Assembly (NCBI RefSeq): GCF_037042905.1
Contig: NC_087250.1
Location: 27,778,001 to 27,842,000 of the forward strand
Reading direction: 5' to 3'
Length of the DNA: 64,000 nt
DNA from: Lytechinus pictus
Lineage: Eukaryota
Shown: positions 6,331 through 37,168 of the stretch, in pieces
Position numbering within the stretch: the first letter of the stretch is position 1
How the letters are laid out: every line of letters starts with the position of its first letter
Position numbers and translations under genes: made by a program
Notes under the pieces: model-generated
The model's input: only the letters and a program-made list of their open reading frames with translations
What the model was told of the DNA's origin: nothing
The model's database searches: none

Positions 6331-6349
6331 GTATTGTTACCCTATCCAA

Positions 6350-11306: not shown

Positions 11307-11718
11307 TTAATGAATAATATATCTAGTCTAAACCTACCTTCTTGTCCGTTTCTTTTTTCTTTCTTTCTTTCTCTCTCTCTTTATTTATTTCTTTTGTTCT
11401 TTCTTTCCTTCCTTCTCCTCCTCCCTCTTCTTCTTCTTTTTCTTCTCCTTCTGTATTCCATTTCCTTACTCCCCCTTTAATTTCTTTATTTCTTTCCCTA
11501 CCTGAAAATCATAAATATTGAAAAATTACAAGAATAAAATTATATGCAGTTAAATGATGAACCTCTTAGACTAACAGAGAGGAGAAGGAGACTTGCAAAA
11601 CATGTCTCAAGAATTATTATGTTCTTAAAAATGCAATATCCTGGTAACCTAATGGAAGAAGGAAAAGCTCGAGGCTGTCCCAAGCATCCGTGGCAACAGA
11701 CTTTCTTCAAAGACATTA

Positions 11719-12618: not shown

Positions 12619-13350
12619 CTATAGAGTTGACCCATATCTTTATACCAATCTGTTGGAGGTTAAAGCGGTCACAGATAATGATAGATTGTTGCCTATAAAT
12701 GCACTACACAGGAGGGACTAAGTGGTAAGTAAAAAAAACAGGAGTAATTCTGCATCTGATATCCCCTCCCTACCTCCTATTGGCGCCTAATGTGGTCCAA
12801 AGTATCACTATTCATATGTAGTAGTTTATTTGATATTCTGATACGAATGCTATTTGCTCACCAGCATTATATCATAAAAACAAATATTAATATTGCTCTG
12901 ATCAGATAAGGAGAGCTATAAGTGTTGTTAATAATTGTCAGATAGAGTCATATTCTGTTGCTGATAAATTGGGATCTGAATCTGATTCTGCAGTTCTTCA
13001 TTTGAAGTCTAGGTTTACACATTCAGATTTTAAATAATTGTGAACAGGTAATGTAACTTCTAAATTTTCAAATGATCCATCTTAAAATAGTAATTTGTAA
13101 TTATAATGGGATGGGAGATGATTATGTTATGCTGAAACACAAGGTACATTAGCTGAAGTAGTTTTTTTTTCATCATCAAGTTTATCTTTTGCATTAATGT
13201 TGACATGTATGAGAAGGTGCATGGGTAAGGTACATAACTTATTTCTTGCCATTGAAGCTTATTTTAATTTCATTTCTTCTGAAGCTTTTAACCTCACATC
13301 TCTTACATTTTTACTTTTTCCAGAGCTAAACAATCATCAGACATCACATC

Positions 13351-15000
13351 ATGGCATCAAGATTTCCAGAAGGAAACCAAGTTCAACTCCGACCAAGAAA
13401 AGGTCATGACATGAAATGGTCATGTGACAAGCATGGTGAGCCAATCAAATTTTACTGTAAGAAACACAAAATTCCTATATGTCATCCATGCGCTACCAAA
13501 GATCACAGTCAGAAACCATGTGAGCTAGACGACATCGAAGATGTCATCTTCGAAAGGAGGAGACAGCTAGATGAAAAACGGCCAAAAGTTCAAGGACTTC
13601 ACAAACAATTGGAAGCCCTCAGCACGAAAATAAAGACTGTGTCAACGTCTGGAAGTACTCATCTTCGGACAATTAACAACAACATTCAAGATTCATATCA
13701 CGACAAGATCAAATCTGTTGGAGAAAAGGAGAACAGGATGATAAGGGTTATTAACGAGGAGGCAGATGAGGAAATAAGACTAGTAAATGAGAAGAGAGAA
13801 AAAAGGATCAAGGATTGCAACACCGAGAGAGAAAATGAGCGACAAATCATCAAAGACAAAGAAGCAAAACTTCTATCAGATGCAAAGAAAATCAGCGAAG
13901 TCATTTCTAAGAAGATCAAAGATCTGACTGATAAGAATCAGCATGTAATAAACACTGTAGAGAACATTGAATCAACCTTTAAACGTATAAACCAACATGA
14001 TGAAACACTGGTGAATGAAGCTCCGCAAGTACTTGCATCTATTGATGAAAATTTAAGTTTGAATGTTCATCAAGATGTTAGCGACTGCCTTGACCGAATA
14101 CAGAATGAAGTTGAGAGAATGAAGTTTGTAGAGGGGGAAGTAGGTGGAGAATACTATGGTAGAATTGATGGGTATATCGGTAAATGGGAACTTGTCAAAT
14201 CAATTCACATTCCATCGGTTGTTAGTAAGCCGAGTGTGCATGGTTTAGTCAGTGATGATGAGATATGTGTGCGAGACGTAGGTAACAAAGACGTGTATAT
14301 TACAAACATCAACACTCAACACACAGAGAAAGTCATTGATGGAGGTGTGTTGATTACATCATGTGCGCCCATAGACAGTAACGTAATAGTATGTGGTAAG
14401 GTGAGAGGTGGTTGCACGGGTGACAGGTTGAATGGATGCATCACTCTCTATGACAGACAATGGAAGGTGATTAGAGACATCAGCATACCAAGGAATGGAT
14501 ACGATCGTGTGTATGTTGATGTTGATAGGGATGGGATGATCATCGCTGGTCAGTTAGATCAGTCTAATATCTACGTCATCAATCCTGCTGATGATAAGAT
14601 AGTAAACACTATTACGATGCAGGGTAAGGAGGTGTGGGATGGGATACAAGACTTGTCATCAGGTGATATCGTTGTGAGGACAGTTAATAATGAATACACT
14701 GTCATCTCACGATCAGGAGAAGAAAAGACTGTCATACACTGTGATGAGTGGGTATCGTCCCGGTGTCGCGTTGACAAACTGACAGACACACTCTACATCA
14801 CGTACAGGGATGAAGCGCGTAAGACATACTCAGTTGATCAGGTGTCACGTGATGGTATCATCCAGGCAAGGAGGATCGTGGAATACGAGCAATCAGATCG
14901 CACTAACTTCATGAGCCCTTGTCTCGTTACTCCTACTGGTAACTTTATAGGGTGTGATGGAGACAAACTTCTTATCTACAAGAAGACATACATCTTGTAA
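13351..15000 (+). CDS. RING-less TRIM-like protein (B-box2, coiled coil, NHL-like beta-propeller), 549 aa, single coding exon
   Basis: B-box CDKH...FYCKKHKIPICHPCATKDH; charged helical segment ~aa 60-260; C-terminal beta-strand repeats (VYVDVDRDGMIIAG, IYVIN, CLVTPTGNFIGCD). Acceptor ttttactttttccAG at 13323 just upstream of the ATG; candidate upstream donor cag|gtaatg at 13048. Confidence 0.88.
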   Translation: MASRFPEGNQVQLRPRKGHDMKWSCDKHGEPIKFYCKKHKIPICHPCATKDHSQKPCELDDIEDVIFERRRQLDEKRPKVQGLHKQLEALSTKIKTVSTSGSTHLRTINNNIQDSYHDKIKSVGEKENRMIRVINEEADEEIRLVNEKREKRIKDCNTERENERQIIKDKEAKLLSDAKKISEVISKKIKDLTDKNQHVINTVENIESTFKRINQHDETLVNEAPQVLASIDENLSLNVHQDVSDCLDRIQNEVERMKFVEGEVGGEYYGRIDGYIGKWELVKSIHIPSVVSKPSVHGLVSDDEICVRDVGNKDVYITNINTQHTEKVIDGGVLITSCAPIDSNVIVCGKVRGGCTGDRLNGCITLYDRQWKVIRDISIPRNGYDRVYVDVDRDGMIIAGQLDQSNIYVINPADDKIVNTITMQGKEVWDGIQDLSSGDIVVRTVNNEYTVISRSGEEKTVIHCDEWVSSRCRVDKLTDTLYITYRDEARKTYSVDQVSRDGIIQARRIVEYEQSDRTNFMSPCLVTPTGNFIGCDGDKLLIYKKTYIL

Positions 15001-15501
15001 ATCATCTAGACTATCAAAGGAATGATATCGGATTTGTAAGAGAAATATAGACCAGAGGTTTGCTTTTACTTTTAATTTTTATTTCAATTTACATCCTTCA
15101 AGCTCTATATGTACGTGACTACTTTCATATACGCATGGTCACGGTGTGTATATTGTTGTATCAATCCATATCAAATAGAAAACTGTCGCTAATGTCCACT
15201 CCGTCTAGATTTAGGTCTGTAATGAACGCCCTCAGATCCAAATGAATAGTTTACTCGTAACCTGAACAAAATAAATTAAAAAACGAATTGCCTACTTGAA
15301 CCAGATGGTTATTGTAGAAAGTCTTTTAGAATGGCTGAATTCAGAATTGAACGTGTTAATAACTGATTTCTGTGAAGTGAACCCGATCATTTACCAAACG
15401 ACATTTCGTTCAATTTCATTCGATGTTATTCTCAATAGTGATCAGGTTATTCCTCGATTAAAATTGTTCTCGGCTTTTAAGGTATTTAATTCGAATCAAT
15501 T

Positions 15502-15674
15502 AACCAGGACCCCATTTCATAAAAAAATGTTGACTATGATAGCAACTCATGCTAAAATGTCAATTACCATGACAACAATAACGATTCTGCTTCCTGATTG
15601 TCTCATCCAATGAAATTTGATATTCAAACTGGAGTTGTTATCATAGCCAGGTTTTATGAAATGGTACCCTGGTT
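15502..15674. mobile_element. Palindromic MITE
   Basis: aaccaggaccccatttcataaaa...ctatgatagcaactc is inverted to gagttgttatcatag...ttttatgaaatggtaccctggtt. Confidence 0.65.
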
Positions 15675-16644
15675 GATTTCATTTTTTTTATTCTGTGGAA
15701 AAAAAAAAAAAAAAAGCGGGAGGGGTCAAAATGGTATGAAATTGAAGTTTCGTAATGTACACAATCCCCCCTCATGAAGTTAGATTAAAATAAGATAAAA
15801 TCTCGTAAATAATGGTGTTTAATAGGGTTCTTGCTTAGTCTACATTCATATGTCAATATAAAGGGAAAGGGATAATGTTTCCCGTATAATTCTTTTTTTC
15901 GCCAATTAAATATTCTCTAGTTATGTATAACAAAATAGGTGAGATTTTTTTCAAAAATATTTAGCACACGGTATATTCATCATATTCCTGAAAGTATTGC
16001 ATCATATTACTTATTTCAATCAGTTCATTTTTCTTCGCTTGTACAACTTTATTTTATCCTCATATCGCTTAATATTTTCAACATAGATTACTGATTAATT
16101 GTATCCCTACACGAATAATATCATCTTACACATTGGCTACCTGACTTTCAAATCTTAAGTAACAATGATATGGAAGTGAAACTTTTTTTAAAAATAGGTA
16201 TTTGTGTCGACGTTCTGTAATGATGTGTTCGCATTACTACGTTCAGTTATGTTTATCAACATCATGAAATTATGTCAAATTAATTTCATTATAAAGATCA
16301 TATGTCAATAAAAAAAAAACACATGATAGGCTAGCGTACAATGCTGTAAATAAATAAAACAGGAATCTATTTTGTTTAACAGACAGGATTAGATAATTTG
16401 TCAAATATCTGCCCATAATGTAGCTTTTGTTCGTGGTTTCACGTTAATATAATATATAACTCGATTCAATCCATTTGTTTATTTTGTTTCTATTTTAAAT
16501 TGTGTTTAGTGTGTAAACTGGAAGTCTATTCCAGAGGCATAAGCTAAAGTGAATATTCTTAAGATGAAAATGGTTGTATTCTTCTGATCATAATTTATTT
16601 ACATTGTGGTTATCCTTATACATGTGCCCCCTCTATCTCTCTCT

Positions 16645-17231
16645 TCAAGTTTACCCCGACAAAAAAATGATTTGAATAAAAAGAGAAAAATCCAACAAGC
16701 ATAACACTGAAAATTTCATCAAAATCGGATGTAAAATAAGAAAGTTATGACATTTTAAAGTTTCGCTTAATTTCACATAACAGTTATATGCACATCCTGG
16801 TCGGTATGCAAATGAGGAGACTGGTGATGTCATCCACTCACTATTTCTTTTGTATTTTATTATATGAGATATGAAATATTCTAATTTTCTCCTAATAGTC
16901 AAGTGAAACAGTGATTAATTCCTCACTGAACATGTGGAATTAGCATTGTTAATACTATATGGTTCAGTCAAGTCTGTCCCTATGGTCAAATCTGTGAAAA
17001 TGAAATATTGTATAATTCAAACAATAAAAAACAAAAGAAATAGTGAGTGATGGACATCATCAACTGACTCACCTAGTTGTGCATATCACTTTTTTGTGAA
17101 AAATAAGCGAAACTTTAAAATGCCATAACTTTCTTGTTTTACATCTGGTTTTGATGACATTTTCAGTGTTATGCTAGTTTGATTTTTCTCTACATATTCA
17201 AATCAATATTTTGCTGGGGTGGACTTGACCT
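16645..17231. mobile_element. TTAA-type MITE family B (left end eroded)
   Basis: Right end ggggtggacttgacct|ttaa; same family as 41488-42091 and 52617-53213. Confidence 0.8.
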
Positions 17232-19134
17232 TTAACCCCCAAATTAGCCCTTTTACTGTATAATACGACATGGGTATCCATGTTGCTGTAATAAGTTGTA
17301 TATAAATCGTTATTGTTCAAGGTGTGTTGTTTTAAGGTAGGAGTATATCATTTTTCAAAAGAAAAAAAATCCATTCGAATTTATTCTTGCAATAATCAAC
17401 TTTGTACAGGTTGAGTTTAGGTAGGGTTTATGCTTTATTTCAACTATCAATTCAATTGCTCGTTATTGTCTATATAGTATAGGTTATTCAAAGTTTGTTC
17501 CTAAAACTGGAATGGAGAGAGTGCTATATATCAACATTTTCTTCCGGCAATATGTCAGATCTAACGACTTTGCTTGATTTTGATTGCCTGAGAAGCACTG
17601 TTACTATGGGAGCTGTTGAATGAAACGCTTGACAATCCCATCTTTTTTTTTATTTGCTCAATATTTGTTGCCTAATATATACAGCTCATTACAATTTGCT
17701 AAATAAAATTTGGGAGACTATTGTACATAACATGCATAATAAACATTATTATGATATAATGTATATCATGATATCTATTATTTTCAAGTGTATATTGAAG
17801 GATGAGTAGAAAGTATACGTTTGCTTTTGATATAATATATTTTCATTATACTTTGTTGTGAATTACTAACATTGTTGAATAGGAAAAAAAGCCAATGCTT
17901 GTTGTTGTATAGACCTAAATCAAGACGAAATTAATCTTAAATACTTGAGAGCTGAAAATAGTCATGTGAAAATAGTTAGGAAATATCTTTCTTTACTGTG
18001 GGTTAATGTATTTAGTTCATTTCGAGAAAGGTTTGCCAATGCAATATATACATGATAGTTGTATACAAATTACTGATCAAAACACCAATTATCAACCGAT
18101 TTGAATATATCTTCACTTTGGGTTATCTACTACATTTCGAGAAAAGCTTACCAATGCACAATCAGTTGTATGCACATTATTCATCTAAAAACCAAGTATC
18201 AACCGATCTGAATAAATGCTTAATATTTTTAAACTGATCGAAATCTTTGCAGTTTTTTTTTTGAGGTCATTATCATGGTGATGGGGAGGGTGATTTTAAT
18301 GCACAAACAATCATGTAATGTTATAATCAAATAATTTTGTCAGCATAAACGAAAATAAATGTAAAAAAACCCGACTCTATATGCAGTTCATATTTGTGAT
18401 TTACAAATGATTTTATTGGGCATGTAGGACCGATGGTAACAGACGAAGGGGGGGGGGGTGAGAAGATAAAGGGAAAAGAGAGGGGGTGGCAAAGTGGAGG
18501 GGAGTGAGAGATTTAAAAAATGGAGAGACGAGGAAAGTAAAGATGGAAAAAAAGATAGAGAGAAAAAATATATATATGAAAATAAAAGGATAAAGAGACG
18601 GAAAGGAAAGGGATAGAAAAGATGAGAGAGAGAGAGGGGGGGGGGGAGAAAGATAGAAGAAGGGGAGAGAAAAGAATGGAGAGACAGGGTGAATACAGAT
18701 GGAATAAGAGCGAGAGAAAGAGAGAAGAAGAAGAAGAACTACCGAGAGACAAGGAATGATAGAGAGAGATGGGGGGAAGGGGACGGGCTGAATTTGAGTT
18801 TGTATTTGTATTTTCCTTTCTTAGGAAACAAAGAAACATTACATTACAAAGTGAAATACATCACAAACCATGTCAATCATAAAAATTCATAACAAAATTG
18901 AAGAAAGGATGAATTTGAATTCCGTATAGATAGATCTGGCTTCGTCGAAATTAAGTAAAAGGAAAATTAACTGAGGGGCTTGCCAAGAACGAATGAATTT
19001 AAGAGATTAAAAAAAATCATAGAAAAGAGTGAGAGAGAGAAAAGGGGGGAGGGGGGGGGGAAGAACAATCCGAACGCTTCTTTTTTGTATCACTGGGAAA
19101 TTTTGTACGATTAAATAATATTGAATTATATTAA

Positions 19135-19756
19135 AGGGATGGTCCAGGCTGAAAATGTTCATAATAACTAAATAGAGTAAAATCCACAAAGCCAAATGCC
19201 GAAAATTTAATTAAAATCGGATAACAAATAAGGAAGCTATTGAATTTTAATTTGTCTAATTTTAAATATTTTGTGAAAACAGTTATTTGCATATGGTCAT
19301 GATTATTCATTAGGTGGGCTGATGATGTCACATCCCCACTTTTCTTGTTCTTATCTTATTACATGAAATCATACACGTTTCATTTCTTCATACATGTGCA
19401 AATGATGTGTCTCTATTACGATAAAATAGGTTGCAGCTATAAATAACTAATGCACTTGATCAGTTGCCATCCAATTGTTTTAGCTCTTGGTAAAACAAGT
19501 TTAATAAATCTAATTTCATATAATACAATACAAAAGAACTGGCGGGGATATGACTTCATCAGCCTACCTCATGAATATTCATAAAGACATGCCTAGAACA
19601 GTAGAACTCAGTGTTTCACCGGAATGATAATGCAAATCTTTAAAATTCAAATAACTTCGTTATTTTCTACCCGATTTTGATCAAATTTTTAGCATATTGC
19701 TTTTTGATTTTATTCTTTTTATTGAGATTTGAATATCTCCAGCCTGGACCATCCCT
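19135..19756. mobile_element. TTAA-type MITE family C
   Basis: ttaa|agggatggtccaggctg ... cagcctggaccatccct|ttaa. The same insertion is present at 49548-50156; empty site near 44570. Confidence 0.85.
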
Positions 19757-21945
19757 TTAAATGTGACCATTGTGCTACTTCTAAAAATTCAAAGAACTAC
19801 GCCACTGTAATATTGAAATTATGTTCAACGCTTCACCAAAATAATATATCAAAATATAATAACACAACACAAGAAATACATTTAATTATAAAATTATAAA
19901 GAAGATTATGGCAATGGCAATTAATGAAATTGAAATGTGAAGGAACCTGCATAAAAAAGCAGAGCTTTATAATGTCTGCTGGTTCCCTAATATGGTTTAG
20001 ATGCTTTAATATGGTAATTGTTTAACTAGGGGCTGGGGGGGGGGTTCAAGTATATCTAATACAAAATAATGTACACACTGACAGAGCAACGCACGTTGCT
20101 TATTGAATCACCCATTGAAAGTGAATTTCTTTTTCTTTAGAAACCACCCAGTAATGGCTTCCATAAAGTGACAGTGATCTGAAGTCGGGTATCATCGATC
20201 GGGAATCCACCTTCATGTCTATCCATTCTACGTCAAAAGATGGCGCTCTTTCATGTCTACATTACACACACATTGAATCACTTGATGAAGATGTGATTTC
20301 TGACATTAATAAAATCAGTTGAAATCAGAAGTCCTAGCAGTCTACAATGAAGCTGAAATGAAACGATTGATTTCTGTAATGCTAATACGCTAAAGACACA
20401 CTACCTCACTCCTCACTTTTTTCCTTGCACAGAGCAAATATGCAACTAAATAGCTCATGAAATAAATTCGATGAGATTGAGGAATACCCCCCCCCCCCCC
20501 CCATTGCCCAATTGGCAAGCATACACTGTTACTTTACAAACATGCATGTCAGGTCAAAATTTTTATGCAAAAGGAAGATCAAATGAAATATTTTCAAACT
20601 GAGAATGTCGTCTTCCATTATAATCGTTGGAGGAATCATGTCGGGTTTTTTTTGGTGAGGCACCGATCCCTTAGATATGACAAATAAGCTGGAGGTTTCG
20701 TGTTGAGATAGAAAGGCCAACGCAAAAAGCAGGGTAAAAACATGGTGTTGTGATCATGTATCAAGATGCTCAAAGCTACCCGTCACAGGCTGAAAATAAT
20801 ATAGAGTGATACTCACTTACCAAAATGCTGAAAATTTTCATTAAAATATGATTACAAAATACTGCTGTTAGTGTATTTTAATGGGCTGGTGATATCACGT
20901 CCAGTGCCATAGAAAGGACTTTTCAAATAGCGGGTGCTGGGGGATTCGTTAAAAAAATTGTTAACTAGATGATGCCCGAGGGGATTTCGGTAACTAAAAA
21001 AAAAGAAGCAAGAAAAAAAATAATAATAATAAATACATAAATAAATAAATGAATATATAAATAAATAAATAAGTTTCTGCTGCCAAATGTTCCTCTATTT
21101 CAATCATTTTTTTTTTCTTGTCAACTTGATGGCAATGGAGTGCATCCTATGTGATAGCATACGCAACACCCTGTGAAAAATCATGAGGGGTGCAGCTTCC
21201 GCATTCACCCCAGTACCCCCGCTTCATATTTTATTAAGTTATTAGATTAAATCATATTCCTCTACTATCTGAAGACTTGTTTGCATGATAAATATATTAC
21301 ACATTTAATCAGTAGTCAATTCATGTTTTCCGTTCTTGGTGGACGAAATTTGACGAAATATAATTTTCCAAAAAAAAAAAAAAGAATAAGTGCGGATTAG
21401 TCTGCAGGCACAGACCCTGATTAGAACTTCGGCCAACCAGTGTGCCTCCACGCAAAGACTAGCACATACAAAACTTGCTGTTCCAAGATAACCTTCAGTA
21501 CACAAGGCATATAAGTAGGCTGCACATTAAGACCCTTAACTCGAGTGAAGGGTTTGCCCAGCAGACTAAGTGCGGATAGGCATCATCAACTTGTTCATTG
21601 TATTGTAGCGAACCCGTCCGCTACGGTTTTTAGTTATAATGCATTAAACGTAGATGGCGCTATAGCAACGCACTGCGTAAGGCAGCTCTCGGAGACTATA
21701 AATAGCGGAGTTTCGCGGTAATCTCGTCACCGCATTGCTGCGTCACTTGTGCCACTCTTCTTACTCTCCTGGTGATTTGCTATCGGCCTTCGCTTTCGCT
21801 TTTACACAGACCATTTGGCATTCAATTCTGCTTCAATCGTCGGAGATACCGGTGTTAGGACCCTTCTTGCAGACAAGGTAGGAGGTTATTGGAAGTCTCT
21901 CCCCCCTCTAACCCCTCCCCCAACTAACACTCTAAATTCAAAACA

Positions 21946-22659
21946 ATGGCGGATGTTGATGAGTCCGACGACTTTGAAATCGTCACCAACAAAAAGAAAC
22001 GAGCGAGAAACAACAGCTCGCCAGAAAAGAGCGAGGCTCAACCAAACGTTTCAATGTTACAAACAATTTGTCTTGCTCCAATCGAGCAGCAAAAATCAAT
22101 CTCAAAATTAAACCCAATTCACGTTGCAAATGAAATCAAATCTAAAATTGGGGAACCTAAAGAAATCAAAAAATGGGGACGTTGTATCCTCATAAAATGT
22201 AAAGACGAAAGGCAAAAGAAAAGGGCCTTAAATCTAGATAGCTTAGACAACATGCATTTAAAAGCATTTATTTGGATGCAAAACCCGCCAGAAAAGGGTG
22301 TAATCACAGGAATTACTCAATCCGTCACGGACGAGGAGCTCCTTGATGAGCTAAACTCTCAAGGAGTGACCGCCGTAAAAAGAATTAAAAAAAGGGTAAA
22401 CGGCGAACTCACAGACACCACCGCCATTATTTTGTCATTCAAGCAGGGCGAAGCGCTGCCAAAAAGTATCCACATTGGATACATGACTAAAAAAGTCACA
22501 AAATATGTACCACCGGTACAAAGGTGCCAAAACTGCCAAGGTTTTGGTCACCTTAAACAAACCTGTAGATTTAAAACAAGATGTGTTAGGTGTGGGGGAA
22601 AGAATTTTGAGACAAGCCAAAAGAAAATCGTGGGAACAATACTGCAACACAATCAATAG
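21946..22659 (+). CDS. LINE ORF1 gag-like nucleic-acid-binding protein, C-terminally truncated
   Basis: KGVITGI...GVTAVKRI...LPKSIHIGY...YVPPVQRCQNCQGFGHLKQTC (CCHC knuckle). The second knuckle breaks off after CVRCGG at ~22600. Confidence 0.85.
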   Translation: MADVDESDDFEIVTNKKKRARNNSSPEKSEAQPNVSMLQTICLAPIEQQKSISKLNPIHVANEIKSKIGEPKEIKKWGRCILIKCKDERQKKRALNLDSLDNMHLKAFIWMQNPPEKGVITGITQSVTDEELLDELNSQGVTAVKRIKKRVNGELTDTTAIILSFKQGEALPKSIHIGYMTKKVTKYVPPVQRCQNCQGFGHLKQTCRFKTRCVRCGGKNFETSQKKIVGTILQHNQ

Positions 22660-25237
22660 ATTTACCCCTCTTACAGAGGTCTGGAAAAAAGTCAGAGCTC
22701 TACAAAAACCACAAAATAGTCATTCTAACCTTCCACTAAAAGTTGATGGGCAAGCTATCCAAAATGACGAAATGAAGGCAAATTTCATTGCAGATAATTT
22801 TCATAATCCAAAAGAATTAGACGAAGAAACGTCACTCAATAATACTGACTTTGGAAATATAGAACCCGTGAATAATTTGGAAATAATTAATGAAGATTTT
22901 ACTCATAAAGAACTTGTTGAAGCACTAAAAGCAACTCCAAACACAGCCTCAGGACCTGACAATATCAGGGCACTGTTTATTAAAAATCTACCCCACAATG
23001 CAATCGTCATACTGCTTGATATTTTCAATTTAATTTGGCAAACATCTAAATTACCGCTTATTTGGAAATCCTCAATTGTTGTTCCAATATTAAAACCAAA
23101 TAAAGACAAATCAGATGCTAAATCTTATAGACCGGTTTCATTAACCTCGGTCTTATGCAAAATTATGGAAAGGATGATAACTAAAAGACTTTTTTGGCTA
23201 AACGAAAAATACAATCTGATATCACCCCTTCAATCTGGTTTCACTCCAAATAGAAGTGTTTTTGATAATTTAACAAGACTCGACACAGATGTCCATAAAT
23301 CATTTATGAATCACGATTTTGTTATAGCAGCTTTCCTCGACCTTGAGAAGGCTTTTGACAATGTTGACCACGAAATTTTGATATCAAAATTACGAACTTT
23401 TGGTTTCTCAGGTCATATCCTTGATTGGATAACCGAATTCATCAAAGATCGAACTTATAGAGTAAGGATTAATGATTTCATTTCACATCGAAATGAAATA
23501 ACAAAAGGGCTCCCCCAAGGGGGAGTCATAAGTCCATTCTTGTTCAATCTTTACATCAATGATTTGGCCCACTCATGCATTTATTCGAATGTAGCTATTT
23601 TTGCAGATGACATTGCATTATGGTATAGATGTCGAAACCTTAAAATTGCAACCAAAAAAGTCCAAACAGATATCGATTCCATTGCGGAATGTACAAGCAA
23701 AATGAAACTCAAATTATCTGCCACCAAAACCAAAATCATCATTTTCACCAAAAAAACGAAAAATGCCTCCACTGATGTCTATATTAAAGACGATAAAATT
23801 GAAGTTGTATCGAATTTCAAATTTTTAGGTTTAACTTTAGATTCTGAGCTCACGTGGAAATACCACATCAGTGACTTATTAATTAGATGCAAAAAAAGAA
23901 TAAACATATTAAGGTGTATTACTGGCACCCATTGGGGAGCGGATACCAAAACGCTCCTGATTTTGTATCGAGCTCTCATTAAACCTCTGTTGGACTTTGG
24001 TTGCTTTTTATTTGATTCGGCTCCTCAAATTCATAAGAATAAACTAGATTCGATCCAATACCAATCCTTAAAGATTATTACAGGCACATTGCCTTCAACA
24101 TCCTTAAAAAATCTCCAAATTGAATGTGGCGAATTGCCACTTAGCCACCGCAGGGAATTCCTCTCGAAAAAATATAAACTAAATATACTTCATTCAAATA
24201 CATATCATCCAACTAGAGAATCCTTTGCAGACTGCTGGGAGTACAACTACAAATCACCTACTAATTTACCATTACCAATGAGAACTTTGGAGTACTCACC
24301 ATCTGTGGAAAAGATTATTACAGTGCCACAACCACCTTGGCACTTTCCTCCTCCGGAAATCGATTTTAGCCTCAAAGAAAGGATTTCTAAAAAAGACAAT
24401 CCTTCATTACTACAACAAAGCTCTTATGAAACAATTTATTCAAAATATTATAACACCCTTCGAATATATACTGATGGGTCTAAAGATCCTACTTCATCCA
24501 AAACAGGCATATCATTTTATATACCTGACCTAAAATATTCAAAATACCATCGTATTTCACCTGTATCGGTCTGCCGTGCTGAACAGGCAGCAATTATTAT
24601 GGCTCTTACCTGGCTGGAAGATTTCCGCCCTCTATGTGCAACATTGCTAGTTGATTCTCTCAGCACTCTGCAATTGATATCTAACTATGAAAACACTAAG
24701 CTACCCCTAATATTAGAAATACTTACAAAATGTAGGGCACTTTCTTATCTAGGTGCTGAGATAACATTTGTATGGATACCGGCACACTGTGGTATCAGTG
24801 GAAATGAAGAAGCAGACAAATTAGCTAAATTAGCTTTAACCAAACCAGATATCGATGTCGAAATTTCTCCAAATGTAAGTGAACAAATCAGTTCACTGAA
24901 ACAACAATTTCGGGCGTTCAGAAAAGAACCACTACTTAATTGCTATTGTAGACGACATGAAATAATTATCCATCGATTGCGTACAGGTTGGATTAGAACA
25001 GCCTATTTCCTATTCAAAATCCATAGGCATCCAAACGGCCTTTGCGATATTTGTAAAACCAATGATGATGTGGAGCACTATGTCCTCCATTGTAGAAAAT
25101 ACCAAAACGCTAGAACAAAATTCTTACAAACAGATCCAAATATACCAATATCACTATCTACATTATTTGAAAGCGAAAAGGGTCAGTCGTCTCTCATATA
25201 TTTTGTAAGGGCGACTGGACTAATAAATGACTTGTAA
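22505..25237 (+). CDS. LINE ORF2: reverse transcriptase, RNase H and C-terminal Zn finger; no endonuclease
   Basis: RT motifs YRPVSLTS, QSGF, FLDLEKAFD, GLPQGGVISP, IFADDI, FKFLGL; RNase H motifs IYTDGSK, AEQAAI, VDSLS, WIPAHCGISGNEEADKLAK; CDIC...HYVLHC. True ORF2 homology starts at ~22601 (RILRQAKRKSW). Confidence 0.92.
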   Translation: MYHRYKGAKTAKVLVTLNKPVDLKQDVLGVGERILRQAKRKSWEQYCNTINRFTPLTEVWKKVRALQKPQNSHSNLPLKVDGQAIQNDEMKANFIADNFHNPKELDEETSLNNTDFGNIEPVNNLEIINEDFTHKELVEALKATPNTASGPDNIRALFIKNLPHNAIVILLDIFNLIWQTSKLPLIWKSSIVVPILKPNKDKSDAKSYRPVSLTSVLCKIMERMITKRLFWLNEKYNLISPLQSGFTPNRSVFDNLTRLDTDVHKSFMNHDFVIAAFLDLEKAFDNVDHEILISKLRTFGFSGHILDWITEFIKDRTYRVRINDFISHRNEITKGLPQGGVISPFLFNLYINDLAHSCIYSNVAIFADDIALWYRCRNLKIATKKVQTDIDSIAECTSKMKLKLSATKTKIIIFTKKTKNASTDVYIKDDKIEVVSNFKFLGLTLDSELTWKYHISDLLIRCKKRINILRCITGTHWGADTKTLLILYRALIKPLLDFGCFLFDSAPQIHKNKLDSIQYQSLKIITGTLPSTSLKNLQIECGELPLSHRREFLSKKYKLNILHSNTYHPTRESFADCWEYNYKSPTNLPLPMRTLEYSPSVEKIITVPQPPWHFPPPEIDFSLKERISKKDNPSLLQQSSYETIYSKYYNTLRIYTDGSKDPTSSKTGISFYIPDLKYSKYHRISPVSVCRAEQAAIIMALTWLEDFRPLCATLLVDSLSTLQLISNYENTKLPLILEILTKCRALSYLGAEITFVWIPAHCGISGNEEADKLAKLALTKPDIDVEISPNVSEQISSLKQQFRAFRKEPLLNCYCRRHEIIIHRLRTGWIRTAYFLFKIHRHPNGLCDICKTNDDVEHYVLHCRKYQNARTKFLQTDPNIPISLSTLFESEKGQSSLIYFVRATGLINDL

Positions 25238-27667: not shown

Positions 27668-28668
27668 GAAGAGTTTAGTTACAAAAGGGGTTAGGTCCAC
27701 TATGGACCATTTCGAGTAAAAACCATGTTTTTTATTCTCACTTATGTAATGTTAAGTTGGTGGAATGACACTGTATATCACTGAGATGGACACGTGACTG
27801 ATTGAACTCTCAAATAACAAGTTTATTAACAACAACTCGGAGCCGTAGTTCTTACATCTCGGTTACATGTAGCGTTGCCTAGCAACCCATAGCAACCACT
27901 TAGCAACCACGCGCATGCGTAAACATATATCATAACATGACAACTTGGTGCAATATTCTTATGAGAAACTAAATTATCATGATGTACTGCTCTATCACGT
28001 GAACATAAAATTGGGTATAAAAGAAATCTACCTGCCTTCAATTTTTTTCTATATATTCTTTTAAAAATCATAATTGTGGACCTACCCTCTTTTGCAACTA
28101 AACTGAAATGAATCCAATCTATTTTGACTAAAGAAGTGATTGTTTCATTGCCACTTTTATTCACGTTTTCATGAAAATTTCAAATTTTCTTTGTTTTCAT
28201 TAGAGCAACAAAAAATTTAGAGGTTTTGAGACAGAAAACAATAAAATTTATGAAAAATGGACCTAACCCCTTTTGACAAATGAGCTCTTCAGAAGAGTTT
28301 GTTTGCATAAGGGGTTAGGTCCACTCCAAATAAAAAAATCATTTTTTAAATTCTTCCATATTGCAATATTCTTATGCGAAACTAAATTTTAATGATACCC
28401 TACCATGATAACATAAAATTGGTTATAAAAGAAATCTACCTGTCTTCATCTTTTTCATGATATTCTTTTCCCCCAAAAAAATCTGTATGGACCTAACCCC
28501 TTTTGAAAAAAAGTGTAATTTTTCTTTGCCATTTTAGTTCGATTTTTAATAGGAATTTCAACTTTTCTTTGGTATCATCTTATAGAGCTACTAAAAATCT
28601 ACACATTGAGACATAAAAATCAAATTTGATGAAAAATGGACCTAACCCATTTTCCAAGTGAGCTCTTC
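27668..28668. mobile_element. Head-to-tail pair of MITEs with GAAGAG...CTCTTC ends (27668-28290 and 28292-28668)
   Basis: Each unit has gaagagttt...aggggttaggtcca / tggacctaaccc...gagctcttc inverted ends. The pair is flanked by ATAT on both sides. Confidence 0.75.
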
Positions 28669-28769
28669 ATATACATCGGAAGTGATCGACGGAAATATGC
28701 AAATAAATGTTCAAGTTGATCTAGGGACTGATACAGGATGTAAAACTGCATGTTCAAAACTTGTAGATT

Positions 28770-28833
28770 ATATTCACATTCGTCCACAAAGTGAACAGAG
28801 ACAGAGGGTGTGAACTTGAAATTATCGGTAAGT
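28770..28833 (+). promoter_or_regulatory. Candidate non-coding 5' exon and splice donor for TRIM-like copy 2
   Basis: ...acttgaaattatcg|GTAAGT at 28828; motif conserved in four paralogous modules; octamer ATGCAAAT at ~28698. Exon start is approximate. Confidence 0.5.
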
Positions 28834-30699
28834 TTTGATAATTAGGAATACCCTAATCCGTATTTTCTTCTCATTTTTCCGTATTGATAAACTGGAGAAC
28901 ATGTAAGCTAATACTACATAATCCTGAATCATTTCATATGAATTTATAGGCCTACTTTATTAACACTTGGGATACGAGAAATTTCCTAGTCAATAGAAAA
29001 TCGAATCTAAACATAATCTTGCTGTAGCCTATAACATTGACACTATAAATGTTAGAGGTGAGAGAATTCAAAATATAAGTATGATAAGAGATGAAGAAGG
29101 ACAATTTTATTAGGACTCGAACATTTGTTAATAGAGATAATGAGGGTGACTTTTGCATGTGGTAAACGAATGTGGTGAAAGAAATAATTTTCGTTCTCGC
29201 TGATGTATGACTTTCTGTGATAATACAGCACCCCCCCCATGGTTATGCACGTGATCAGTAAATTACAAAGAAACATGTTTGAAAGTCTCCGTTTCTTTTA
29301 ATTTTTCGTTGTTCTTCCTTAATTGGAACCATAGTAGAATATAAAGTTCACTATCAAACCGTATTCACAAAAACAAATAAACGTTGTTTCTGTCTTTTCA
29401 ATATGAGACACTACACTCAAAGCAAAATATACAAAATTAGAAGAGATGTATTGTGTATCAACATGTTTATTGTAAACTGATGTTTCATACATATTTTGCC
29501 CATGCAACCAGCTAACTGTGACACCTCATCCCTCTCTTTCCTCTCTCTCTTTCTTTCTTGTATCACTATAATCAATATGTAAAAGAGAGAGCTCTGGGGC
29601 TAGGCCCACCCCAAAAGTTCAAGCACCAAGATAAAATTGAGAAAGAGAAAGAAAGGAAAGGAAGAGGTGTGAATTATATACACATATTTTTTCTTAATTT
29701 TCTTATTTTCTTATTATTTTTTATCTATCAGAAAATAAGCTATCCTCTTTTGCTCCCTTTCTTTACTCCGTTTAATGACCTTTTTATCTTTTGGACAATG
29801 TTTGGCCCCCTCATTTTGTTGTTGGTTCATCACCGCATTGGCACAAGGCTTTTATATTTGACAAAAGTTTCTGAAACTGTGATCAAAAAAACAATTTTTG
29901 TTCTAATATCATTCAGACTAAAAATATTCCTTCTGGATAAAAATGAAGGGAAATTATAAAACTAATCAGCATTTGTAATAATTATCTACTGTATTATCAT
30001 AATAGTACAAAACAATTGAATCATATTGGATGGTTCAGAACGGAATATCAGAGATATTTCAATAGTTTTGTATAGTAGCCTGTATGGTATGCGGAGGATA
30101 TCAGTCCTTGGTTCAATATGCTGTCATATTAAACAGACAACTGATTCAGACAAAAATACACATTAAAAATGCATCGCTAAAACCATGGACCGTAGTAGGT
30201 TCCATGCTAAAACACTCTGTAGATTACAATCCTTGATATCAGTATTAATGATATATGACCAGTATTGTCAAAGACATGGTCAGTTATTAAATGTTATTTT
30301 CATCTACGTTATTATCATTCTTATTATAGTTATGGTGACTTTGATTTTTCGTTATCATAATCAAAATTATTACCATAAATGGTGACAATTATAATAATAA
30401 TAATAAAGTAGGTGGCCCTAATGGTACTATTATTATGGTAATATTCACCATCAACGTTATCTAACATACACAATGATAAAACATTTAAGTTTCATGCAGA
30501 AAAGTCTATAGAAAGTACAAATAAAAAAGGCTTTGAAAATGCCTTGAAATTTCAAGGCTCAAAATCCTCAAGGCCTGAAAGTCCAAGGCCAAGGCATCGA
30601 ACAAGTTGGCCTTAAGGCGCTTGAAGGCCATGGTCGAGCATCAAGGCACTACAACAATGGTTCTTGATTACAAAAAATGCTTTTAAACTTTCCAAATTT

Positions 30700-33480
30700 T
30701 AGGTCAGGATGTCAATTTTCAGCTTCGTTTTTTGCTCGCTTCAATAATGTTTAGATGTCTGTTTACCCATCCCAGTTTAAAAGTCGAAAAAAAAAAAATC
30801 ACAGCTCTCTCTCTTCTCGCTCGTATCAGAAGGTTAGTAAGAAAGCTACTTTGCTAATATTTAAACAAAATGCTAAAAATTCCGAATTTAACAATCGGAA
30901 AATTTTTTGATCATCGCGTCACGTAATCAAATGTCCAAGATTTAGTGTCGATCTTTGTATGTTGGTAATTCTCTTATTGATGCAAAGCCCAGTGTACGGA
31001 ACCTTGGTGTTCAATTTAATTCTGAAATGTCATTGGCTTCCCATGTGAATTTGACATGTAGAAATGTGTATTTTCAAATTCATAATATTAATAGTATTAG
31101 AAAATCCATGTCCACAAATGTAACTTTATCTGTTTTACATTCATACATTATTTCTCGTTTAGACTATGGCAATGCGCTGTTGTTCAACGCTAACAACGAT
31201 CAGATCCGCAAGCTTCAAAGAGTGCAAAATGCCGCTGCCCGATTTCTTAGTAAAACTTCTGAAAGAACTTCACTGGTTGCCTGTGGTGGAGAGAATAAAA
31301 TTCAAGATTTTGTTGCTTACATGGGACGATTATAAATGGTTGTGCTCCTCATTATCTTAACGATCTTATCTCTGAATATGTACCCTCTAGAAATTTAAGA
31401 TCTTCAGGGACCGGGTTGTTGACAACTCGTAGAATCAAATGCTCATTTGGTGAAAAAGCTTTTGCTCATTGTGCTCCAACTTTGTGGAATGCACTCTCAT
31501 CAACAATACGCGATGCCAAATCTATAGAGTCATTCAAAGCCAACCTTAAAAAACATAGATCTATTCTCATCATATTTCAAATAACACCCCCTTCTGTTTA
31601 ATAATTCCCTCTTCGCCTCTGAATAGGAAACTAGATAGAAGGCGCACTCTAAATGCTATTAAAATAAAAATGTTCAGCTTGCGATTTGCGCTCGTATAGA
31701 ACGTGTCAATAGATAGCTATCGTCTTAAGGATTACAAAACTTAATTTCAAATGTTTAGTCTGAAAATGAAAATTTCAAGCTTATGCTTCGCCCTCGCATT
31801 AATATTGTTTAAATAAATAATATCATGTTTTTGTTTGCAAAATTACTTATTGCTCACATTGATTGGTAGGATATGTATTCTTCTCATGTGTTACATGGAA
31901 ACATTCATTAACAGGTAGCTTTTCAGATCATTATAGTAACATTTTCAACTCCCGCTCGCAATATCCTCTACATTAGCCACTGTAAAACTGTTATTATTAA
32001 CTCCCTTTTTAGATTAGTGTATTGAAATTTTGGCTCGCGCTTCGCGCTCCCATAAATTATTTAGTTACATACCCATATTGTTAATGATAATTTAACAACT
32101 GCTCAGAATATATCACTATACATGAAATATAAAAAAAAAATAGCTCGCGCTTTGTGCTCGCGTTATTTCTTAATGCCTTATCCTGCTATCTTGTGTGGAA
32201 CACCAAATCTGAAATGAATTAAAACTTCAGTCTTTCGAGAGGAATACCCCTAAAAATTAGCTCTTGGCAGCTAATCGGAATAAAAATATATTTGTTTCTG
32301 CCGATCATTATTATTGTAAGATAATGTGTTCTTTCCCCGGATAACAAAAAATTATTATTACATACGCATATTGTTCATGAACAAAAAAAAACCAACTGCT
32401 CAGAATATCAAAGTTTATATCACTATACATGAAATATTAAAAAAAAAATAGCTCGCGCTTTGTGCTCGCGTTATTTCTTAATGCCTTATTCTACTATCTT
32501 GTGTGGACGCACAAACCTGAGATGTAGTTAAAACTTCGGTCTTTTGAGAGAAATACCCCTAAAAATTAGATCATGGCAGCTAATCGGAATAAAAATATAT
32601 TTGTTTCTGCCGATCATTATTATTGTAAGATATGTGTTCTTTTCCCCGGATAACAAAAAATTATTAAGCTCTTGCTTTAGCTTTAGATTCCCATCATCCA
32701 TTAGTGAGATAATTATATCCTCTCAACAATTTTTATGCCTCTTAAAAAGTGTTCAAAGGTTTCCACTTTTGGTCACTATAATAAAATTTTCACCTTGCGC
32801 TTTGGACTCGCATCAATCATAAAATTAAGATACACAAATTGTTCTTTATTTTAAAAACGTGCTTAAACTTTTCAATTTTCAGATGGGAATATGAAAATAT
32901 CCCAGCTCGCACCCCAAGTTTGTATGGCTTAATTAATCATGCTTAAAAAATTCAATTTTCAGTATAGATAAAAAAAAGAAAAATCAGCTCGCACTTGGCA
33001 CTCGCATCAATTTTTTTATTATAAAGGCATCTTATCTTGAATGATTATACGCGACCACAAAGCGTGAGCTGCATTTATTTTTTATTCTAACCTGAAAAAC
33101 GAAAATGATCTTTTTCATATTATTATAGAAAATTTCAGCTCGCACTTCGCGCTCACATTTTTTGTATTTATCCCTTGTTAGACACCTTACCGTGTTTTTG
33201 AGAATAAATCTCATAATTTATTTAACTTCGGACGGTTTCTACAAAACATATTTATTTTGGTGCCCCCTACAAATGTTCAAGCAGCCCCCCCCCCTCCCAG
33301 CTGAATTAAGTCTCAGATACGCCATTGCCTTTAAGATAACATTAATTCCAAGGGATGTTATCAATAATATTTCTAACCTCCCGCTTACACAATTCTAGGC
33401 CTACTCTGATTAAAAAATACATGAAATTGAAACCCCCAAATACTTAAAACACAAATCACTCGCGCTTTGCGCTCGCATTA
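30700..33480. repeat. Dispersed repeat with recurring agctcgcgcttcgcgctcgc motifs, including a ~300-bp tandem duplication (32067-32665)
   Basis: Motif recurs at ~32035, 32143, 32451, 32987, 33137 and 33459; reverse-complement copies at 38455-38910. Confidence 0.7.
30955..31665 (+). mobile_element. Degenerate L2-group LINE 3' fragment
   Basis: SVRNLGVQFNSEMSL...SRLDYGNALL...KLQRVQNAAAR...LKELHWLPVVERIKFKILLL...FAHCAPTLWNAL, spread over three frames. Confidence 0.88.
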
Positions 33481-34312
33481 ATTCTTTTTGAAGAAAAAGT
33501 GACATTACATATATTATATATATGTGGATTTATTTCCTTCATGAAAATATGATTAGAAATAGTGGTCTTCAAATGCCGTGTTTTATGTGACTAGGAAATA
33601 AAATAATTCAACACGCATTTAAAGCACTTTTCTTGCTCGGCGGGGAGGGAGGAGGCGTATTTTTTTCTCTCTAAAATGGCACCAAAATCAGGTCAGGTTT
33701 CTGCCCCTCCCTATACGAAATCCCAGATCTTATTATCATTATTCTATACATGAGGAATTTCGTATATCATTTTTTACAATGAAAAGAGCCTTTAGACTTT
33801 TTTCTCTTCGAACATTTAAATTTCGCTGTAACTTATGCTCACTGCATGTACTAAATTTGTGCCCTAAACATACTAGACATCTTTTTGACGTTGTTTGTCG
33901 TTTTCTCTACGCACTATCATAATCTATTTCCAAAATTCTTTGCAATTTGAGCACTGATCGACGTTTATCATGAGCTAAAAATAAAAACCATACCACCTAA
34001 TATGTTTATACACTGCACCTCTTCGTGTATTCGTGTTTAATAATACATTATACAAGGATCTCAATTCAACTAAAGGAAAAAAAAAAGTATTAAATTAAGT
34101 GTTGTTTTATCGGTTCACAAAACAACGCAAGAAAAATTAAGATTAAATCTGAGAACACTTTCACTGTAAAGGTTTCTGAGAAAGCGAGAGAATGTTTAAT
34201 ATACCCTCGTAATTTTTTGATCAAATGTTTCTTGAGTTCATTTTAACTTTTCTTGCGTTTTTTTTTTATTTTTTTTTTTTAGGTAGGCTACTGTCCCTAT
34301 TTTATCTTCGTC

Positions 34313-37168
34313 ATGGCGTCTAAGTTCCCAAAAAAGAAGGGTGGAGAGGACGAGCTTCGTACAAGGAAAGGTCATGACATGAAATGGTCATGTGACAAGC
34401 ATGGTGAGCCAATCAAATTTTACTGTAAGAAACACAAAATTCCTATTTGTCATCCATGCGCTACCAAAGATCACAGTCAAAAACCATAGCAGCTAGACGA
34501 CATCGAGGATGTCATCTTCGAAAGGAGGAGACAGCTAGATGAAAAACGGCCAAAAATACAGGAACTTCAGAAACAATTGGACGCCCTCAATGGGAAAATA
34601 AAGACTGTGTCAACGTCTGGAAGTACTCATCTTCGGAAAATTAACAACAACATTCAAGATTCATATCACGACAAGATCGAATCTGTTGGAGAAAAGGAGA
34701 ACAGGATGATTAGGGTTATTAACGAGGAGACAGATGAGGAAATAAGACTCGTAAATGAGAAGAGAGAAAAACGGATCAAGGATTGCAACACCGAGAGAGA
34801 AAATGAGCGACAAATCATCAAAGACAAAAAAGCAAAACTTTTATCAGATGCAAAGAAAATCAGCGAAGTTGTTTCTAAGAAGATCAAAGATCTTGCTAAT
34901 AAGAATCAGCATGTAATAAACACTGTAAAGAACATTGAATCAACCATCAAACGTATAAACCAACATGATGAAACATTGGTGAATGAAGCTCCTCAAGTAC
35001 TTGCATCTATTAATGAAAATTTAAGTTTGAATGTTCATCAAGATGTTAGCGACTGTCTTGACCGAATACAGAATGAAGTTGAGAGAGTGAAGTTTGTAGA
35101 GGGGGAAGTAGGTGGAGAATACTATGGTAAAATTGATGGATATATCGGTAAATGGGAAATTGTCAAGTCAATCCACATTCCATCGGTTGTTAATTACCCG
35201 TTGGTGCATGGTTTAGTCAGTGATGATGAGATATGTGTTCAGGACACAGATAACAATGCCATGTATATTACAAACATCAACACTCAACACACAGAGAAAG
35301 TCATTGATGGAGGTGTGTTTATTACATCATGTGCGCCCATAGACAGTAACGTAATAGTATGTGGTAAGGAGAGAGATGATTTCACGGGTGACAGGTTGGA
35401 TGGATGCATCACTCTCTATGACAGACAATGGAAGGTGATTAGAGACATCAGCATACCAAGGAATGGAGACGATCGTGTGTATGTTGATGTTGACAGGGAT
35501 GGGATGATCATCGCTGCTCAGTGGGATCAGTCTAATATCTACGTCATCAATCCTGCTGATGATAAGATAGTAAACACTATTACGATGCAGGGTAAGAAGG
35601 TGTGGGATGGGATACAAGCCTTGTCATCAGGTGATATCGTTGTGAAGACAGATCATTATGAATACACTGTCATCTCACGATCAGAAGAACGGAAGGCTGT
35701 CATACACTGTGATGAGTGGGACTGGTGGTCACCAACGAACGTAGAGGGCAGCAACACACAAGCGTGTTGCTCTAAGGAAGGTCAACTCAATACGCGCATG
35801 CAGCTGAGGTACGCGCATATTTTATCATTTATGCCAACGAAATCATACGCCGATCAAATACAACAACAAATTAGTAGCGATCACGAAAACAATATGAAAG
35901 AATATGACTACAACGATATCAAAGATAACATTAAAAAATTATGTTGGACAATATACATACATTTAAAAACATACGTTGATATTTAAAACTTTACAAATAT
36001 AAGTTTTAGAAACTAAATCATTACCAAATCGGTGATTGTTGTTATCAGCGATTTCACCAGACGGCTGTATTAGGTGATTTGCGTCGAGACGATTTTGTGA
36101 CCACTCGCAAAGCATTTCGGGATTGAATATGACCACCTTATTTTCTCTGAGCTCTTCGCTGAACCCATCATCACAGTGCAGCTGCAGCGCAGCGCGCAGC
36201 CAATGCAATGCATCCGATGCGTGGGTTGTTTTTTTCACCGTCCATGCCATGGTCTCGGACTCGGAGTTGAAATTTAGACCCGGATTTCGGGGATACAGCG
36301 CCTTTATTTCAGATTTATAGACTTAAAAGTCAAATGACATTTAAAATTTGAAATCTAACCTTGAACAATCATCGTTGATAAACATCAGCCCTGAAGCAAT
36401 TGCACTTCAATTCAGACTAGGCAAATTGGACGTCATTGTCTATGTTGCTAGAAGGTCTATGACGAGTCGCCTGAAGCCCCAGCGCATCATCAACGTCACT
36501 AGCTAGCTGCGCGACCGGCCCAGACTCGGCGCACCCAGGCCAGAAAAATGACCTCGATTATTACGGTGGTTGTCTATGCATTTATTAGTGGTGCAGCGAA
36601 ATTCAGCAGAAGAAAATAAGAGATATGAGGTATCCTCGTCATAGACTTAATATTCCAAAATGAGGAAAAATGTCAAAATCATGATTATTTAAGCTAAATA
36701 TTTTCTTTAAAAATAAAAGTAATATCTTTAATATTTATACCCAGAATAACCGATCTAATAATTGTTCATTAAAAAATATTTGAAATTAACAAATGAAAAA
36801 AAATCAACTCGACTAATTTCTCAAAACCCCACCTTATTTTTTAAAGTGGTCACAAAATTCGAGCGGAGTTGACCTTCCTTAGAGCAACACGCTTGTGTGT
36901 TGCTGCCCTCTACGTTCGTTGGTGGTCACAGTGCCGCGTTGACAAACTGACAGACACACTCTACATCGCGTACTGGGATGGAGCGCGTAATACCATCGCA
37001 GTTGATCAGGTGTCACGTGATGGTATCATCCAGGCAAGGAGGATCGTGGAATACGTGAAATCAGATCGCTTTCACTGGTTCAGCCCTTGTCTTGTTACTC
37101 CTTCTGGTAACCTTGTAGGATGTGATGGGGACAAACTTCATCTTTACAAGAAGACATTAATCTTGTGA
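34313..37168 (+). pseudogene. TRIM-like copy 2, pseudogene (552 codons when repaired)
   Basis: ATG at 34313 after a poly-T AG acceptor at 34282; in-frame TAG at 34487-34489 (TGT in copy 1); transposon inserted at 35733-36921; frame resumes to TGA at 37168. Confidence 0.92.
35733..36921. mobile_element. Young non-autonomous DNA transposon, 1189 bp (P- or hAT-like)
   Basis: Perfect 56-bp TIRs (35733-35788 / 36866-36921) starting CAACGAACG; 8-bp TSD GTGGTCAC (35725-35732 / 36922-36929). Confidence 0.92.

Follow-up and report, generated by a model that had tools for sequence, protein, structure and literature searches.

In a 64,000-nucleotide stretch of the Lytechinus pictus genome (contig NC_087250.1 of assembly GCF_037042905.1, positions 27,778,001 to 27,842,000 of the forward strand; hereafter the window), two copies of a TRIM-like gene, A and B, encode a B-box, a coiled coil and a C-terminal six-bladed propeller. 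Purifying selection preserves the frame of this propeller, and some 35 loop positions on its top face change much faster than the synonymous rate. We regard it as very likely indeed that the top of the propeller is a diversified binding face. An earlier, sequence-only reading of the window had described TRIM-like paralogs with short hypervariable patches as candidate immune sensors; two such copies do exist, although copy B is broken and a tblastn search of the window found no third (Table 1).

An AlphaFold2 model of the copy A protein, built with an alignment of 96 proteins (from the 120 relatives listed, after fragments, fusions and long models were dropped), has a mean predicted local distance difference test score of 89 and shows long helices at residues 62-256, followed by 24 strands forming six four-stranded blades at residues 278-546, with strand 522-526 only partly assigned. 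In VIA structural alignments the best match to the propeller was the NHL domain of Mei-P26 (Z 23.5, root-mean-square deviation 3.3, 257 aligned residues, 16% identity), followed by Brat, Thin and TRIM2/3; the top eight matches were all TRIM-NHL proteins (Z 21.9-23.5), and WD40 proteins came lower (Z ~18). Sequence identity to the solved TRIM-NHL domains is 10-16%, the family profile matches the TRIM2/3 NHL domain weakly (E 0.002-0.004 over ~60 residues), and the Atlas clusters nearest the propeller are NHL (0.94). A seven-bladed WD40 propeller was considered as the nearest fold and rejected: Foldseek ranked WD40 proteins first by E-value and the Brat NHL domain 28th, but with the best TM score, and re-alignment with VIA settled for NHL. 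As modelled, the C-terminal domain of copy A is an NHL-fold propeller and not B30.2/PRY-SPRY. By language-model features, molluscs hold similar NHL clusters, and comparable expansions elsewhere are possible.

Variability was mapped onto this model for 54 of the 96 aligned proteins, comprising L. pictus proteins from a contig of the same length as that of copy A and those of Lytechinus variegatus and Strongylocentrotus purpuratus (sequences of the last species come from more than one annotation release, and some may be alleles). Faces were labelled by the DSSP strand topology of the model, with two strand-end residues counted per loop, giving 109 top, 103 bottom and 60 core positions (272 in all). 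The b-c and d-a loops make up the top surface of NHL domains, which in Brat binds RNA (in the portion of PMC4015489 consulted, as for all statements from that paper below). Mean entropy was 1.52 bits on the top face against 0.52 on the bottom (p=2e-17), and of the 37 sites reaching 2 bits or more, 33 lie on the top, three in the core and one on the bottom (Fisher p=4e-11), so that the variable sites, rather than scattering over the structure, mostly fall on the single surface that had been proposed on an NHL-type propeller. Hypervariable sites fell on the top face in each species taken separately (13/15, 21/21 and 35/39), site entropy was correlated between species (rho 0.51-0.62), and all the recurrent propeller indels are in top loops (11/11 insertion sites seen in at least two propellers, 1/1 deletion site seen in at least three). 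Each hypervariable site holds about 11 different residues on average; tryptophan and tyrosine account for 230 of 1919 residues at the 37 sites, compared with 14 of 3219 at 60 variable N-terminal sites. Among 14 L. pictus paralogs on the same contig, hypervariable sites differed by a mean distance of 0.69 and the frame by one of 0.11. The periodicity noticed from the letters corresponds to the blade repeat, the entropy autocorrelation being ~0.2 at lags 18-20 and 43-45. The near-invariance attributed to the B-box and coiled coil, however, describes the A/B pair and not the family, in which mean coiled-coil entropy is near that of the propeller and some members are only 40-60% identical to copy A in parts of the coiled coil.

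Gap-free alignment of the two copies extends over 13394-14752 against 34362-35720 (94.1% identity) and 14757-15017 against 36925-37185 (86.6%), and in all A/B comparisons codons 1-15, 57 and 468-470 were excluded. DNA identity is 95.1% over codons 16-277, in agreement with the ~95% estimated by eye for the B-box and coiled coil, and 91.3% over the propeller (278-549). The N-terminal half carries 20 non-synonymous and 18 synonymous differences and the propeller 57 and 13, so the propeller changes are, as had been noticed, mostly non-synonymous. All nine of the patches previously picked out are present, at residues 292-295, 308-315, 351-355, 384, 400-402, 443-447, 468-471, 484-494 and 513-521, with the VSSR/DWWSQ patch straddling the insertion in copy B. 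Clustering of amino-acid changes exceeds that in 5000 shuffles for the propeller (p=0.0008) but not for the N-terminal half (p=0.15). The 47 amino-acid differences in the propeller (31 top, 10 core, 6 bottom) coincide with positions of greater variability in L. variegatus and S. purpuratus (2.02 vs 0.81 bits, p=2e-12). Of the 66 positions at which the two copies differ, 64 have a copy B residue that recurs elsewhere in the family, and this is equally true of the copy A residue; the patches are therefore older than the death of copy B, and the changes are not confined to the pseudogene lineage.

For the measurement of selection, circularity was avoided by taking the hypervariable sites solely from the 22 proteins of S. 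purpuratus, which gave 39 sites (37 scorable), and the rates of non-synonymous (dN) and synonymous (dS) change were obtained by Nei-Gojobori counting (kappa 1-3) on the single A/B pair. At these 37 sites there were 32 non-synonymous and 2 synonymous changes, corresponding to a dN of 0.48-0.53, a local dS of 0.08-0.11 and a gene-wide dS of 0.08-0.10, and hence to a ratio of 4.4-6.6; the excess of dN has p 0.02-0.002 against local dS and p<1e-8 against gene-wide dS. Expressed relative to gene-wide dS, dN was 4.9-6.7 at the hypervariable sites of the top face and 0.35-0.46 in the bottom loops, and the N-terminal half gave a dN/dS of 0.27-0.36, its 37 most variable sites showing no excess (pN 0.036). 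Three points tell against our interpretation: the faces were assigned from DSSP strand topology rather than from coordinates; the ratios come from one pair, of which one member is a pseudogene and whose key sites offer just 2 synonymous changes; and the dN/dS of the whole propeller, 1.30, is not significantly above 1 (bootstrap p=0.20), so that the signal is confined to a subset of sites. Positive selection is thus seen at the top-face sites but not propeller-wide.

These figures also bear on whether the pattern might reflect relaxed constraint or artefact, whether through drift of loops in redundant duplicates, decay of the pseudogene, hypermutable sites or conversion by distant donor sequences. 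Copy B is indeed dead, some members are mosaic and the whole-propeller ratio is unremarkable, as such an account would allow; it conflicts, however, with the gulf between bottom loops and top hypervariable sites and with the sharing of copy B residues by other members. Local dS is not elevated either (synonymous divergence is 0.064 both near to and far from the S. purpuratus-defined sites), and CpG transitions make up only 2 of the 34 changes. We consider this explanation very improbable.

The face that varies is the one with which Brat binds RNA (PMC4015489), the best fold matches are RNA-binding NHL domains, and aromatic and arginine residues are common on the top face; the family might then consist of sequence-specific RNA-binding regulators like Brat or LIN-41 with diversified specificity for host mRNA or viral RNA. 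The top faces of the RNA-binding TRIM-NHL proteins are, however, electropositive (PMC4015489), whereas the summed top-face charge of the 54 proteins, a residue count and not an electrostatic calculation, has a mean of -3.6 (range -16 to +4; copy A -4) and is positive in 9 of 54, and the median isoelectric point of the propeller is 5.5. RNA regulation of this kind accordingly appears quite unlikely.

A protein search returned 121 relatives, of which 120 were listed, and every named one among those listed is from L. pictus, L. variegatus, S. purpuratus or Diadema; 88 representatives passed E<=1e-30 in a profile search, and when 20 more distant matches were looked up, the nine with a species name on the protein were all echinoid. 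At least 19 clusters at 90% identity lie on a contig of the same length as that of copy A. More distant sister subfamilies (P0113-P0120, P0124 and P0169), with 22-34% identity and a longer N-terminus, form tandem arrays in echinoids, including Diadema. The Metaclust fusions P0121 (triple tandem) and P0123 (macroglobulin domains), together with P0109 (which has a dehydrogenase tail), are probably models joined in error and were handled as such.

Different parts of these genes have different histories. Despite a dS of ~0.1, copies A and B can be aligned only from codon 16 to ~20 bases beyond the stop, and dispersed repeats are the sole sequence common to their flanks. Their 15-codon leaders represent two types, both of which occur in L. 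pictus, L. variegatus and S. purpuratus, scattered over near-identical bodies. For 38 proteins, projected pairwise onto copy A with insertions dropped, the tree of the N-terminal region and that of the propeller frame each reject the other (approximately unbiased test, p 2e-42 and 2e-4; the frame tree is weakly resolved). Clear segment swaps were seen in P0038, P0012, P0008, P0100/P0122 and P0015/P0122: N-terminally P0012 and P0008 share 97-100% identity, against 25% at hypervariable sites, and P0038 and P0012 have different coiled coils (40-69%) but last blades that are 93-98% identical. Gene conversion or unequal crossover confined to the coding exon would fit this mosaicism, and the dead copy, tandem paralogs, discordant trees and exchanged leaders agree with the birth-and-death evolution that had been proposed. 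In a related observation, P0015 of L. variegatus (a B-box form) and P0122 of L. pictus (a Death form) have last blades that are 95% alike and a common ZU5-type tail; their heads differ, so that across species the tail is shared and the head is not.

Four L. pictus gene models on a contig of the same length as that of copy A, with distal coiled coils 88-97% identical to that of A over residues 213-290, carry the same propeller behind other heads: Death-TIR in P0087, TIR-like in P0088, Death in P0100, and Death with the ZU5-type tail in P0122. The P0087 head is nearest to MyD88 in the Atlas (0.93, 174/256 features) and its model matches TIR domains; a sequence search of P0087 against solved structures gave nothing useful. 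In the propeller tree the Death/TIR-headed models do not cluster together.

We consider a role of the family in immunity probable; it is made plausible by analogy, by the Death/TIR-headed gene models and by expression in S. purpuratus coelomocytes. In the parts of PMC13043383 available, where family members are treated as uncharacterized, at least nine of the 12 S. purpuratus family identifiers searched were found in the coelomocyte bulk counts, three at tens to hundreds of reads and six low. Eight identifiers are single-cell cluster markers, mostly of clusters 0 and 1, called phagocyte by elimination, and of the colourless-spherule cluster 10, the strongest being LOC115926785 (adjusted p 6e-172), and one member is among the genes up-regulated in vibratile cells in this ultraviolet B (UVB) study (PMC13043383). 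Counts for LOC115927415 and LOC115927174 were very different among the three replicates (PMC13043383, Table 1), which may be an allelic, copy-number or individual-specific effect. Copy A itself is covered by contigs of runs X1 and X3 at 88% likeness or more.

A good deal must be set on the other side. We found no ligand, challenge-induction or loss-of-function data for an immune role. The Death/TIR-headed forms are predicted gene models, absent from this window and seen in L. pictus records only (6/6 matches), and their Pfam scores for Death and TIR are below cut-off (E 0.005-0.025; none for P0088). In the same portions of PMC13043383, most S. purpuratus members are low in coelomocytes, often at 0-30 counts; bulk counts are not visibly higher, by eye, after UVB; the comparison covers immune cells only; and since clusters 0 and 1 consist mainly of untreated cells, marker status may reflect treatment. 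The raw RNA runs labelled L. pictus, X21 and X22, of which ~6% of the reads were covered, had almost none on copy A, and those few (depth up to 3.6, with at least five differences) are probably from paralogs. A published L. pictus infection study makes no mention of TRIM or RNA-seq.

A signature of selection is silent on the opponent, and the variable face could track transposon proteins or RNAs, selfish elements or gamete-compatibility factors. The TRIM-NHL relatives work in the germline and in RNA control, and the region is rich in transposons; coelomocyte expression of the S. purpuratus members and the Death/TIR heads point away from such intragenomic or reproductive conflict, which we think unlikely.

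The eight Cys/His residues of the B-box are invariant across the 96 aligned proteins, and the family profile matches the B-box/coiled-coil structures of TRIM28, TRIM25 and TRIM5 (E 2e-6 to 5e-5). In copy A, Pfam found nothing above cut-off apart from the B-box, neither RING nor NHL, and no RING match was found in the 12 relatives scanned, with the proviso that splice forms beyond the 12724/13324 junction may differ. That splice is supported by one contig of run X1 (presumed to be RNA) at a depth of 4.4, with 30 letters on the shorter side. An in-frame stop (13327-13329) lies just past the acceptor, so an upstream RING exon cannot be joined through it and the first exon is untranslated. The copies without RING are therefore best called TRIM-like and are not ubiquitin ligases.

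A B-box form with neither RING nor signalling domain might serve as bait, the arms race being real but the proteins absorbing pathogen antagonists of TRIM-NHL proteins, or tuning RING-bearing TRIMs by co-assembly in a dominant-negative manner. Decoys would likewise evolve fast at their surface, and many members are weakly expressed. At 10-16% identity to the solved TRIM-NHL domains, though, the propeller would be a poor mimic, and the Death/TIR-headed sister models point to signalling; such a function has, in our view, a small chance of being correct.

In our view it is probable that the family consists of RING-less cytosolic, germline-diversified binders, which function like finTRIM or NLR-B30.2 proteins with NHL in place of B30.2. 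Each paralog would bind a different fast-changing ligand through its top face, most likely a protein of an intracellular pathogen or parasite. New residues would arise by point mutation under diversifying selection and be recombined by gene conversion or unequal crossover; leader, coiled coil, blades and C-terminal tail are indeed swapped among paralogs, and copies are lost by stops and transposon insertion. As in TRIM proteins, the coiled coil would dimerise and space two propellers, and the B-boxes would assemble such dimers as a lattice over a target with a repetitive surface, for example a capsid or a microbe. Without RING, the B-box forms might block the target or recruit another effector, and the Death or Death-TIR sister genes might turn binding into inflammatory or cell-death signalling. 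Taken to its full extent, this would amount to an undescribed intracellular receptor system of sea urchins, in which an antibody-like NHL propeller, germline-diversified by selection and gene conversion, is a cassette shuffled among lattice-forming B-box heads and Death or MyD88-like Death-TIR heads; we put this forward tentatively, as a proposal that may well prove wrong. If true, it would be a cytosolic repertoire for pathogen recognition parallel to the TLR, NLR, SRCR and Transformer expansions.

Table 1. Features of the two gene copies and of the intervening DNA in the window.
Feature	Position	Strand	Basis
Copy A untranslated first exon, 3' part	12622..12724	+	Left coordinate is the end of the upstream repeat's read pile only; donor consensus at 12725
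Copy A intron in 5' untranslated region, 599 bp	12725..13323	+	GT..AG splice joining ~12724 to 13324
Copy A, intact gene with a single coding exon, 549 aa; B-box, coiled coil, six-bladed NHL-fold propeller	13351..15000	+	Open reading frame; identical annotated protein P0002; AlphaFold2
Copy A B-box (C25 H28 C36 H39 C44 C47 H52 C57)	13423..13521	+	Pfam zf-B_box, 26.2 bits vs cut-off 24.1
Copy A coiled coil, aa 62-256	13534..14118	+	Model helices; family profile matches
Copy A six-bladed propeller, aa 278-546, hypervariable d-a and b-c loops (top face)	14182..14988	+	Fold match; entropy and face mapping; dN/dS
Non-LTR (long terminal repeat) retrotransposon between copies A and B, outside the gene family	21928..25234	+	Pfam RVT_1 (E 7e-39), RNase_H (E 4e-11)
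Copy B, a paralog turned pseudogene, whose 15-codon leader is of another type	34313..37168	+	Alignment; tblastn
Copy B premature stop at the codon for the final B-box cysteine (codon 57 in A)	34487..34489	+	Assembly sequence alone
DNA-transposon-like insertion (miniature inverted-repeat element), non-coding, 1191 bp, blade 5 of copy B	35732..36922	.	57-bp perfect terminal inverted repeats

Around the stop in copy B (34484-34492) three changes fall within four bases in otherwise conserved surroundings, by a multi-nucleotide mutation or an assembly error. The insertion in its fifth blade is flanked by a 6-bp direct repeat, although slightly longer arms and a duplication of 2 bp would fit equally, and its perfect arms suggest that it is recent; no second copy was found in the window. 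Its terminal repeats hold an internal palindrome, and inner inverted pairs of 14 nt (36092/36845) and 12 nt (36455/36635) are also present.

The window as a whole is animal DNA of ~35% GC, rich in repeats. The retrotransposon has a zinc-knuckle-like open reading frame and a 916-residue open reverse transcriptase/RNase H frame, and the failure of Pfam to find an endonuclease domain suggests an internal deletion. A high-copy repeat directly upstream of the first exon of copy A (11700-12620) is read on both strands in RNA runs. An open frame at 7359-7718 (+) with an RF-1 domain (E 8e-16) resembles the C-terminal exon of a mitochondrial release factor, and 7545-7677 has a partial duplicate at 7714-7838. 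Long minisatellites occupy 813-3749 (65-bp unit x45) and 55194-57272 (32-bp unit x65), and degraded frames at 6309-6701 and 30946-31598 presumably resemble the 3' ends of CR1/L2-type LINE (long interspersed element) reverse transcriptases.

How invertebrates achieve specific recognition without antibodies is a long-standing question for which sea urchins are a main model. We found no description of this family in the literature searched, most subscription journals being outside its reach, and name-based surveys of immune genes would miss it, its members being annotated as 'uncharacterized'. On this evidence the NHL domain, otherwise familiar as a conserved module for RNA binding, can become a hypervariable binder, as B30.2 did in vertebrates. 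A single coding exon, a good fold model and ~35 specificity positions make ligand screens and loop swaps straightforward, and the propeller frame could serve as a natural binding scaffold.

Among known systems, the TRIM-NHL proteins (Brat, Mei-P26, Thin/TRIM32, TRIM2/3, LIN-41/TRIM71 and NHL-2) resemble the family in their B-box, coiled coil and six-bladed NHL fold (VIA Z 21-23.5). Brat, too, is not known to carry a RING. The top face is the functional surface in TRIM-NHL proteins too, which are, however, few conserved genes with electropositive RNA-binding faces (PMC4015489), whereas the urchin family has dozens of tandem paralogs with one coding exon, no Pfam NHL match, no filamin domain, 10-16% identity and a hypervariable face that is mostly neutral to acidic. 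With fish finTRIM and primate TRIM5alpha it has in common an expanded or fast-evolving TRIM scaffold, positively selected C-terminal loops and recombination between paralogs (PMC2657112, as far as the part consulted goes); those proteins carry B30.2/SPRY and RING and have a documented antiviral link, in contrast to an NHL propeller without RING and with no known antiviral link in the urchin family. The zebrafish NLR-B30.2 genes likewise have a positively selected module spread by gene conversion across different N-terminal heads (in the sections of PMC4852459 at hand); in the urchin the propeller is spread over B-box, Death and Death-TIR heads, and the family is smaller, has no NACHT or LRR and uses another recognition fold. 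Finally, the DED-TRADD-N-beta-propeller proteins of amphioxus and oyster are also a lineage-specific expansion in marine invertebrates that combines Death-like domains with variable propellers (PMC8195603, in the portion available), but theirs are TRADD-N domains with WD40 propellers of variable repeat number, whereas the urchin family joins a B-box and coiled coil to a fixed six-bladed NHL fold.

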